A stretch of 4,069 nt of DNA from a virus (Duplodnaviria; Heunggongvirae; Uroviricota; Caudoviricetes), in IMG/VR virus record IMGVR_UViG_2563366958_000009. One strand, given 5' to 3'. The number at the start of each line of letters is the position of its first letter. Position 1 is the stretch's first letter. The position numbers were made by a program, and so were the translations under genes. Positions 1 through 2,059 of this stretch are shown here, one piece after another. The notes under the pieces are model-generated. The model worked only from the letters and a program-made list of their open reading frames with translations. It did no database searches and was not told the DNA's origin.

Positions 1-2059
1 AGTAAAAATTTCTGGCGTGCTTAAAGATGGCACAGGAAAACCAGTACAGAACTGCACCATTGTGCTGAAGGCCAGACGGACCAGCAGCACGGTGGTGGTG
101 AACACGGTGGCCTCTGAAAATCCGGATGAAGCCGGGCGTTACAGCATGGATGTTGAGTATGGCCAGTACAGCGTCACCCTGCTGGTTGAAGGTTTTCCAC
201 CTTCACATGCCGGGACCATTACCGTCTATGAAGGTTCCAGACCAGGTACGCTGAATGATTTTCTCGGTGCCATGACGGAGGATGATGCCCGTCCGGAGGC
301 ACTGCGCCGTTTTGAGCTGATGGTGAATGAAGTGGCACGTCATGCCGGAGCGTCATCACAGAGTGCAGCGGCGGCAAAGAAATCCGAAACGGCAGCAGCC
401 TCATCGAAGAATGCAGCGAAAACCTCAGAAACGAATGCAGCTAACAGCGCACAAGCGGCAGCGGCCTCGCAGACTGCATCGGCAAACTCCGCGACAGCAG
501 CCAAAAAATCAGAAACCAACGCGAAAAATAGCGAGACAGCCACAAAGGCCAGCGAAAAAAACGCAAAATCCAGCCAGACGGCAGCGAAAACCAGTGAGAC
601 GAATGCCAAAGACAGTGAAGCCAACGCAAAGGTGAGCGAAACAGCGGCGGCGAACTCGGCGAAAGCATCGGCAGCAAGCCAGACGGCAGCAAAAGCAAGT
701 GAAGATGCTGCCAGAGAATACGCAAACCAGACAGCAGAGCCGTACAGATATGTTTTACAGCCGCTGCCGGATGTGTGGATACCCTTTAATGATTCGCTGG
801 ATATGATTACGGGCTATTCTCCGGGTTATAAAAAAGTGAAGATTGGTGATAATGTGGTTCAGGTTGCCAGTGATAAACAGGTTAATTTCAGTCGCGCATC
901 AACGGCAACATATATCAACAAATCTGGCGAACTGAAAACGGCGGAAATTAATGAGCCACGATTTGAGTGTGATGGCCTGCTTATTGAGGGGCAAAGAACG
1001 AACTTCTTCCCGAACAGTACAGACCCTTCGAAGTGGAATAAGTCAACTTCACTGGACGTTACAGAAACAGGCACAGATAGTTTCGGGTTTAATTATGGCC
1101 GGTTTGTCGTACAGGATTCGATTGTTGGTACAAGTAAAGCGCATACCATTATCGGACTGTATTCGAGTACCGGAGGGGTTGATACTTCAGGGGACGAAAA
1201 GCATGTAACTATATCCTGTCGGGTAAAAAGTGAAGTTGATAATATCGCCGTTCGTATTTTATTTGAACATTATGATGGGGAGGTAAGGACATCAATAGGA
1301 GCAGCAAACCTGAACCTTACCACCCGCATAATTAGCAAGACAGGTCAGACAAGCCGTGTTACAGCAAGGTCTGTTAAGGATGATGCAACTGGCTGGATAT
1401 TTTTTGAGGCTACATTAAAAGCAGATACAACAGAAAATACGGTTGGTGGTTTTGTCCAGTATTCTCCGGATACAGGGCAGATGGTTGCATCAGGGGATTA
1501 TCTCGATGTAACCACTCCACAGATTGAGGCTGGTACAGGCGCATCATCTTTTATTGTTACGGGGACGGCACCGGTAACGCGGGCAAGCGATATGGTTACA
1601 GTTCCGATTAAGAATAATCTTTATAATCTTCCTTTTACGGTTCTTTGTGAGGTACATAAGAACTGGTATAAAACGCCAAATGCAGCACCGCGTGTTTTTG
1701 ACACATACCGGCATCAGGCAGATGCGGGGATCGTAATGGGGTTTGGTTCATCAGGTGGGTACGACGGTTTTCCGTATTGTGATATAGGTGGTTCAAACCG
1801 ACGAATAAATGAAAATGCCGGGCTGGAAAAAATGCTTATTGGTATGCGGGTAAAGTCCGAACGGTCCACATGTGTAGTCAGTAACGGTAAGTTAAGCAGC
1901 GAAACTAAAACCAAATGGGAATATATCCGGAGTACAGCAACCATTCGCATTGGTGGACAAACTACAGCAGGATTACGCCATTTATTTGGGCATGTGAGGA
2001 ATTTTCGTCTCTGGCATAAAGAGCTAACAGATGCGCAGCTTGGGGAGGTTGTGGAGTGA
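1..2059 (+). CDS. stf: Side tail fibre protein, lambda Stf-like N-terminus with LamG/ConA-like C-terminal domain; 5'-partial (start codon a few bases upstream of the window)
   Basis: Open frame runs from position 2 (codons gta aaa att tct ggc gtg = VKISGV) to TGA at 2057-2059. The translation VKISGVLKDGTGKPVQNCTI...NTVASENPDEAGRYSMDVEYGQYSV...GFPPSHAGTITVYE...GTLNDFLGAMTEDDARPEALRR matches the N-terminus of phage lambda Stf as I recall it. An Ala/Ser/Thr/Lys/Glu-rich repetitive shaft follows. The C-terminus (...GLRHLFGHVRNFRLWHKELTDAQLGEVVE) resembles the terminal motif of laminin-G/ConA-like lectin domains. Confidence 0.9.
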   Translation, partial: VKISGVLKDGTGKPVQNCTIVLKARRTSSTVVVNTVASENPDEAGRYSMDVEYGQYSVTLLVEGFPPSHAGTITVYEGSRPGTLNDFLGAMTEDDARPEALRRFELMVNEVARHAGASSQSAAAAKKSETAAASSKNAAKTSETNAANSAQAAAASQTASANSATAAKKSETNAKNSETATKASEKNAKSSQTAAKTSETNAKDSEANAKVSETAAANSAKASAASQTAAKASEDAAREYANQTAEPYRYVLQPLPDVWIPFNDSLDMITGYSPGYKKVKIGDNVVQVASDKQVNFSRASTATYINKSGELKTAEINEPRFECDGLLIEGQRTNFFPNSTDPSKWNKSTSLDVTETGTDSFGFNYGRFVVQDSIVGTSKAHTIIGLYSSTGGVDTSGDEKHVTISCRVKSEVDNIAVRILFEHYDGEVRTSIGAANLNLTTRIISKTGQTSRVTARSVKDDATGWIFFEATLKADTTENTVGGFVQYSPDTGQMVASGDYLDVTTPQIEAGTGASSFIVTGTAPVTRASDMVTVPIKNNLYNLPFTVLCEVHKNWYKTPNAAPRVFDTYRHQADAGIVMGFGSSGGYDGFPYCDIGGSNRRINENAGLEKMLIGMRVKSERSTCVVSNGKLSSETKTKWEYIRSTATIRIGGQTTAGLRHLFGHVRNFRLWHKELTDAQLGEVVE
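353..720 (+). repeat. In-frame imperfect tandem repeats in stf encoding an A/S/T/K/E-rich low-complexity shaft (recurring K-S/T-SETNA-like units)
   Basis: Protein segment SSQSAAAAKKSETAAASSKNAAKTSETNAANSAQAAAASQTASANSATAAKKSETNAKNSETATKASEKNAKSSQTAAKTSETNAKDSEANAKVSETAAANSAKASAASQTAAKASEDAARE, with repeated DNA words such as aaatccgaaacggcagc, aaaatcagaaaccaacgc and aaaaccagtgagacgaatgc. A comparable low-complexity tract exists in lambda Stf. Confidence 0.6.

Follow-up and report, generated by a model that had tools for sequence, protein, structure and literature searches.

What does a lambda-type side tail fibre end in when both the distal domain of the lambda and T4 fibres and the accompanying tfa gene are missing, and which part of such a fibre would choose the host? 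The question is raised by a stretch of 4,069 nucleotides (nt) from IMG/VR virus record IMGVR_UViG_2563366958_000009 (hereafter the window), which opens with the side tail fibre gene stf (2..2059 on the + strand; 687 amino acids, aa). A sequence-only reading of this DNA had proposed that Stf is a mosaic fibre with a lambda-like N-terminus and, over 1514-2059, a laminin-G/concanavalin A-like (LamG/ConA-like) lectin tip that folds without Tfa and recognises a polysaccharide. Following up this proposal showed that the LamG finding is correct but ordinary, as the domain belongs to a common coliphage receptor-binding module that has partly been described before. With moderate confidence, I favour a picture in which a lectin-like adhesin head sits on a lambda-type anchor and shaft, a middle domain of the head sets specificity, the LamG domain offers a second contact or partner surface, and the small downstream gene orf92 supplies an accessory.

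An anchor, a shaft and a two-domain head

The lambda-like N-terminus was borne out by profile and structure searches. Pfam phage_tail_N (PF08400) spans Stf aa 1-129 (2..388, + strand) at E 5.6e-67, and PDB entry 9e7m, with the N-terminal chain of lambda Stf, matches aa 1-92 at E 1.3e-47. This anchor and the place of the gene downstream of J and lom are those of a lambda-type Stf. The gene is read in frame 2 of the window and stops with TGA at 2057-2059; its first 5 nt precede the window, and residues are numbered here so that amino acid i begins at nt 2+3(i-1). The anchor is followed by an Ala/Ser/Lys/Thr-rich shaft at aa ~130-251 (389..754, + strand; 31% Ala, 15% Ser, 10% Lys; pI 9.5) with degenerate repeats of the KTSETNAK type. 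Shaft length differs between alleles: Stf proteins with the same head measure 687, 802, and 857 aa, and the longer ones carry more of these degenerate repeats (1729-4302 in locus L057, 1894-4302 in L070). Tandem Repeats Finder detected no DNA tandem repeat in the shaft of the window.

Matches to lambda-type fibre PHROGs extend no further than aa ~240. No lambda/T4-type distal domain was matched in Stf by Pfam at E<=1, and neither a gp37-type distal region nor Tfa (Caudo_TAP) was matched by Pfam, NCBIfam, or PHROG in Stf or the downstream open reading frames (ORFs). A canonical Tfa-dependent distal domain, the outcome named beforehand as speaking against a lectin tip, was searched for with Pfam and not found. 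A C-terminal Peptidase_S74 domain, as in T5 pb1 and DT57C LtfA/LtfB, is likewise absent according to Pfam.

Instead, the region from aa 252 to the end (434 residues) forms one module that is always C-terminal and is borne by differing N-termini, among them lambda Stf-type, T5 pb1-type, tail-collar, tailspike-N, and others. An initial search for homologues gave 120 near-identical E. coli sequences that were uninformative on diversity, and a search of representatives was used instead. Representatives at 50% identity, searched exhaustively, yielded 3,094 related clusters at E<=0.001, and 78 diverse members were used for the Pfam scan and the alignment. The module is abundant, with 225 phage records carrying it and one near-identical protein cluster among many representing 1,063 sequences. 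The homologues are lateral tail fibres of T1-like, Dhillonvirus, Queuovirinae, T5-like, and rV5-like coliphages, and Stf itself matched phrog_1419 ('tail protein') at 1172 bits. As a side observation, four 'Campylobacter phage' records (MG065692.1, MG065676.1, MG065654.1, and MG065652.1) and some 'Listeria phage' records contain coliphage-type heads together with homologues of orf92, and their identity equals that seen in rV5-like or T5-like E. coli phages; these records may be mislabelled or contaminant assemblies.

AlphaFold2 modelled the 434-residue head as a monomer from the 78-sequence alignment at pLDDT 95.6 and pTM 0.91, with nearly all of it in beta structure. The head is therefore predicted to be a compact, all-beta, self-contained folding unit. 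It begins with a conserved beta-rich stretch at aa 252-335 (755..1006, + strand), which carries the motifs PLPDVWxP, FSRASTATYINKSG, and NEPRFExxGLLIEGQ, has the lowest column entropy of the module with nearly invariant columns, and forms the 5' recombination flank discussed below. Both sandwiches that follow are variable across the family, and strong conservation is confined to three stretches, namely the first ~85 head residues, the linker QxE..ASS.I.T...TRA.D, and the final LFGHxRNxRxWHxxLTDxQ. In a separate observation, residues 9-35 of family member P0225 gave a weak Fibritin_C (foldon-like) match directly before the head (E 0.0012, below threshold), which hints that a trimerisation element can sit directly ahead of the head.

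The middle of the head is a variable beta-sandwich at aa ~327-528 (980..1585, + strand) that is homologous to the head spike fibre of the gene transfer agent (GTA) RcGTA. NCBIfam NF048003 (GTA_spike_fiber) matched aa 327-528 at 72.1 bits (E 8.2e-20; profile positions 1-181 of 182) and thereby passed its curated cut-off of 36 bits, and the spike fibre protein Rcc01080 (GhsB) was matched at E 3.8e-5 from the single sequence and 7.4e-39 from the family profile, with clear sequence homology to Stf aa ~296-543. Rcc01080 is a monomeric appended domain, present as one flexible subunit per capsid spike (PMC7296036), which binds cells in a capsule-dependent manner and for which binding of capsular polysaccharide is experimentally demonstrated (PMC10218006). 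Unlike Stf, it is not a tail fibre but attaches to capsid pentons through an N-terminal peptide, in an alphaproteobacterial host. The match to it goes no further than chain residue ~286 of 325, and what is left at the C-terminus is too short for a LamG domain. The family profile also matched the Pbunavirus baseplate triplex protein (E217 gp45 / Pa193 gp46, ~1e-18), where the middle domain forms the peripheral part, and the distal tail (Dit) protein gp17 of Shigella phage Sf11 (7e-12), where it is a C-terminal appendage described as of 'currently unknown function' (PMC12724387). These proteins differ from Stf in being baseplate or Dit proteins, and the occurrence of the domain as an appendage on a baseplate wedge and a distal tail protein fits a portable decoration module.

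The last third of the head is the LamG domain, for which the window sequence on its own was only suggestive: Laminin_G_3 (PF13385) matched Stf at 14.6-17.7 bits (E 0.004-0.04; profile positions 98-149 of 151), and the family was therefore collected and scanned. Laminin_G_3 was then matched at E<=0.01 by 52 of the 78 diverse members, and P0159 reached 44.8 bits (E 1.9e-11; profile 11-151) in the stretch aligned to Stf aa ~536-684. The last ~150 positions of the family profile matched the S-layer LamG-like protein 4qvs (3.7e-5), the lectin-like HCN domain of BoNT/D (botulinum neurotoxin D; 0.008), and CBM40 of NanA (0.013), which binds sialic acid. The LamG call is beyond chance, and Stf would belong to Laminin_G_3 by transitive homology; it differs from established Laminin_G_3, pentraxin, and CBM40 domains in that the window protein alone falls below the Pfam gathering score (27.6 bits) and in its setting on a phage fibre. 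Its predicted fold is the curved two-sheet jelly-roll sandwich of ~150-200 residues that is characteristic of the ConA-like clan.

The proposed C-terminal LamG/ConA-like fold was thus upheld, within narrower bounds. The interval 1514-2059 is in frame and corresponds to aa 505-685, but the domain, a basic (pI 9.4) pentraxin/LamG-type beta-sandwich at aa ~531-681 (1592..2044, + strand), begins ~25 residues later, while residues 505-530 are still part of the domain before it and of a linker. The motif that had prompted the call, HLFGHVRNFRLWHKELTDAQL, was found at aa 660-680 (1979..2041, + strand) and comprises the C-terminal strand and helix. It is the most conserved stretch of the domain, with a column entropy of 0.84 bits at aa 662-671 as compared to ~3 bits over aa 532-655 family-wide, aligns to Laminin_G_3 profile positions 98-149, and reads LFGHIRNxRIWHxALTDxQ in the family consensus.

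Recombination joints and the exchanged domain

DNA comparisons between loci located the joints at which this fibre was assembled. GC content is 0.54 before nt ~750 and 0.44 after it, and DNA identity to locus L024 rises from ~40% to 98-100% at nt ~740 before declining again past nt ~1860. The head joins the lambda-type part at aa ~250 (nt ~740-755). The fibre is thus mosaic as had been proposed, with a lambda-type anchor and no lambda/T4-type distal domain, but the junction is not at aa ~500. A second comparison, with locus L034, gave 100% identity up to nt ~960, 40-63% between ~960 and ~1560, and ~100% from ~1620 into orf92. The start of the tip as originally drawn (aa ~505) coincides with the 3' edge of this divergent cassette.

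Per-domain protein identities were computed over 60 distinct loci and agree in showing that the middle domain is exchanged independently: it can be 45% identical between flanks that are 95-100% identical, or 98% identical where orf92 is at 26%. E. coli prophage alleles keep the LamG domain at 78-100% identity; in close alleles with the middle domain replaced, LamG is 82-95% identical and its extreme C-terminal end 97-100%. The LamG domain of phage 21 is just 37% identical to that of the window. Co-variation with orf92 was seen for the final 29 LamG residues (Spearman 0.73). What close E. coli alleles swap is the middle domain (nt ~960-1600) and not LamG, and the middle domain probably sets receptor specificity.

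The small gene in the tfa position

The absence of tfa was confirmed, as no Tfa (Caudo_TAP) homologue was found in the window by Pfam or NCBIfam and no tfa is annotated in the prophage. Its position is occupied by orf92 (2056..2334, + strand), which encodes an acidic 92-aa protein (pI 4.25, as compared to pI 9.4 for the LamG domain), and whose GTG start overlaps the stf stop codon (GTGA) with a GGAGG 8-14 nt upstream. The protein belongs to phrog_1361 (E 2.5e-39), so that the window holds both the phrog_1419 head module and the adjoining small acidic phrog_1361 ORF; it had no Pfam, NCBIfam, or PDB match and no informative name among 24 clusters. An orf92 homologue begins 0-14 nt past the fibre stop in 76/76 viral loci with enough downstream DNA, and homologues occur in 187 phage records from lambdoid, Drexlerviridae, Dhillonvirus, Queuovirinae, T5-like, and rV5-like phages.

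One would not expect a monomeric and compact lectin-like head, as modelled here, to depend on a chaperone for a trimeric tip. The place of tfa, however, is taken by a translationally coupled 92-aa ORF that accompanied the head in every locus examined, so the earlier expectation of folding without a helper is not supported. The orf92 product is likely the dedicated accessory of the head, acting as a folding or assembly partner. A more specific proposal, which I put forward tentatively and regard as possible rather than probable, is that orf92 (phrog_1361) founds a partner family for the head, either as a Tfa-independent folding or assembly factor or as an acidic, LamG-seated adaptor that sockets optional distal fibres. 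If true, the head and orf92 would be a portable two-gene receptor-binding cassette of lambdoid, T1-like, Dhillonvirus, Queuovirinae, T5-like, and rV5-like phages.

Optional distal fibres are seen in many relatives as second fibre genes between orf92 and orf98, which share the N-terminus MATSTVIP.DI.TLK and carry a Peptidase_S74 chaperone (L057 4593-5633; L070 4593-5297; L003 4808-5974; L004 5581-7326; L085 4789-6513). Locus L085 is that of IrisVonRoten; such a gene is also present in VogelGryff and Salmonella phage FGS017, and there is none in the window; its presence suggests branched fibres in those relatives. The next gene, orf98 (2344..2640, + strand; phrog_1443, E 4e-44), encodes a small membrane protein of 98 aa and ends the fibre operon in lambdoid relatives (homologues at L057 5661-5963 and L070 5308-5595). 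It was found in 66 of 84 loci, where an extra fibre gene sometimes separates it from orf92 and orf98 stays last, and its phage 21 homologue is annotated with 2 transmembrane domains. It could be a candidate for superinfection exclusion or lysogenic conversion.

Among the closest known relatives is the proximal lateral tail fibre Gp22 of the T5-like phage IrisVonRoten (Bas32), the last 434 aa of which are 61% identical to the window head over its full length, and which is followed by an orf92 homologue, Gp23, with 45% identity and an equal overlap with the fibre gene. Unlike the window protein, Gp22 has a T5 pb1/LtfA-like rather than a lambda Stf-like N-terminus, and a T-shaped distal receptor-binding protein, Gp24 (S74 chaperone), follows. 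The Gp22 C-terminus has been described as galectin-like and as a possible extra receptor-binding domain (PMC11990801), and the BASEL study assigned such homologues to lateral tail fibres, arguing that the primary receptors of these fibres are O-antigen or other glycans (PMC8594841). The head gave neither a match to the Gal-bind_lectin sequence family nor a galectin as its top fold match, and what BASEL II called galectin-like is here resolved into a GTA-spike-fibre-type and a Laminin_G_3 domain. Two matters of labelling were noted for this phage: its orf92 homologue bas32_0023 (L085 4501-4779) is called 'tail fiber protein' in GenBank, and BASEL II names the proximal fibre Gp23 in the text and Gp22 in the figure legend (PMC11990801).

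The comparison with Stf/Tfa of lambda (Ur-lambda) is close at the other end of the fibre, where the anchor is nearly identical over the first 92 aa, the gene has the same place after J and lom, and the shaft is likewise Ala/Ser-rich. In contrast to lambda, the window has no gp37-type distal domain and no tfa, but a globular lectin-like head and a different small downstream gene. DT57C LtfA/LtfB and Gifsy-1 Stf were considered as relatives and rejected, the former as S74-type fibres and the latter as lambda-type. In the literature found, no paper splits the head into GTA-spike-fibre-type and Laminin_G_3 domains, maps the cassette, or discusses orf92, and a 2026 receptor-prediction preprint and the DT57C structure paper make no mention of this head. 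The role of the small orf92-type protein appears not to have been addressed before, and this universally linked 92-aa gene is the one part of the picture with some novelty.

Readings of the head and its prophage setting

From the computed domain identities, predicted folds, mosaic joints, and gene linkage I infer a mechanism that covers glycan binding, the domain responsible, the oligomeric state of the head, and the role of orf92. The lambda-type N-terminal domain (aa 1-~95/129) would fix the fibre to the tail tip, and the Ala/Ser/Lys-rich shaft (to aa ~250) would hold the head off the tail. By homology and fold analogy, the head may act as a non-enzymatic, lectin-like adhesin that reversibly binds surface glycans, for example O-antigen, capsule, or lipopolysaccharide (LPS)/enterobacterial common antigen, and such contact would speed up adsorption before J engages the terminal receptor. 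The middle domain would be the main specificity cassette, exchanged by recombination at its conserved flanks, and the basic, more conserved LamG domain may provide a second, less variable glycan contact or a structural or partner surface. A head of this kind would have no trimeric beta-helical tip like that of lambda/T4 fibres and would therefore make no use of Tfa. The glycan receptor suggested at the outset (O-antigen, capsule, or LPS core) remains plausible through GTA spike fibre homology, although LamG is not the obvious specificity tip.

Several considerations weigh against this picture. ConA-fold domains also serve protein-protein contacts, as in neurexin and laminin, and the Pa193 gp46 wedge, which has a ConA-fold domain, holds a fibre. 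Glycan binding is proposed by homology and fold analogy, all structures of the head are predictions, and the literature found offers no experiment on binding by this head for any coliphage. The LamG domain is variable family-wide and may hence contribute to specificity. Finally, in T5-like relatives the head-bearing fibre is a 'proximal' one that carries a separate distal receptor-binding protein (PMC11990801).

Some of these points lead to other readings of the same protein. The LamG domain itself could be the receptor-binding tip that fixes host specificity, with the upstream domains as a mere stalk, as had been assumed in the sequence-only reading. Its C-terminal position, nearest fold analogues that include sugar-binding domains such as CBM40, a surface that is mostly variable across the wider family, and the low identity (37%) of the phage 21 domain would all fit. 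The exchange pattern points the other way, since close E. coli prophage alleles keep LamG at 78-100% identity while the middle domain is replaced at 45%; in addition, the C-terminal end of LamG is nearly invariant, and the capsule-binding GTA head spike fibre shares the middle domain and not LamG. I therefore consider a LamG specificity tip unlikely. Quite improbable, by my estimate, is a role of LamG and orf92 as a docking or branching platform for a second distal fibre whose gene was lost here or is supplied elsewhere. An S74 fibre gene does follow orf92 in many loci (L057, L070, VogelGryff, Salmonella FGS017, and Gp24 of IrisVonRoten), but the head and orf92 occur without one in the window, in phage 21, in ev243 (99% head identity), and in most lambdoid loci. 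BASEL II models Gp22 as a proximal fibre carrying the T-shaped Gp24, yet the lectin-like domain in that model protrudes from the fibre and is not the joint (PMC11990801). Pa193 gp46, the top two-domain structural match, is a wedge protein holding a trimeric fibre, but its fibre-holding loop (residues 80-113) lies outside the homologous region (199-394). Similarly, the co-variation of the LamG C-terminal end with orf92 (rho 0.73) and their complementary charges (pI 9.4 and 4.25) would suit a docked pair, although adjacency by itself accounts for the co-variation.

The ConA-fold domain could also be read as a glycan-degrading enzyme, such as a GH16-like glucanase or a lyase, and the fibre would then be a depolymerase. 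This is very improbable: lectin, pentraxin, and laminin-G matches rank above enzymes, no GH16-type ExDxxE catalytic motif occurs anywhere in Stf, and the Pfam match is to the non-catalytic Laminin_G_3. The adhesin head with the middle domain as its specificity cassette is thus the reading that I retain.

In extraintestinal E. coli, the window forms the right end of a lambdoid prophage that sits beside the trp/yci region. NZ_OZ547117.1 matches it at 100% and annotates stf as a 'prophage tail fiber N-terminal domain-containing protein' in the order J-lom-stf, and at least 80% of the window is present in 98 of 5,426 complete genomes. From the tape measure gene onward come L, K, I, J, lom, stf, orf92, orf98, a YkgJ-family gene on the opposite strand, a VapA/VapB-like gene, IS1, and chromosomal yciE/yciF. 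The YkgJ-family gene (2759-3091, - strand; PF03692, E 6e-12) encodes a CxxCxxCC zinc/iron-chelating protein and converges with the fibre operon, and a strong hairpin with a T-run at 2666-2647 on the minus strand looks like its terminator. A 150-aa ORF (3277-3729, + strand) matched Pfam R_equi_Vir, the Rhodococcus equi VapA/VapB virulence-associated family, at E 5.3e-34. The ORF lies between the prophage end and IS1, in an island where GC is low (0.29-0.41), and is kept across extraintestinal pathogenic E. coli genomes with this prophage end; a Vap-family protein as a moron at the end of an E. coli prophage was unexpected. The IS1 end occupies 3871-4069. Among the genomes listed, IS1 is present at this site only in isolate AF3, where it adjoins a disrupted DUF892 (yciE-like) pseudogene, and the others match the window only to nt 3870.

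The conceptual gain of these results is small, as lectin-like heads on lateral fibres and glycans as primary receptors are already accepted. They provide a usable domain map with recombination joints (nt ~740, ~960, ~1600, and ~1860) for a very common type of E. coli prophage fibre, whose head is shared by six coliphage groups used in therapy and engineering. For host-range engineering, the unit to swap would be the middle cassette, and orf92 should accompany the head.

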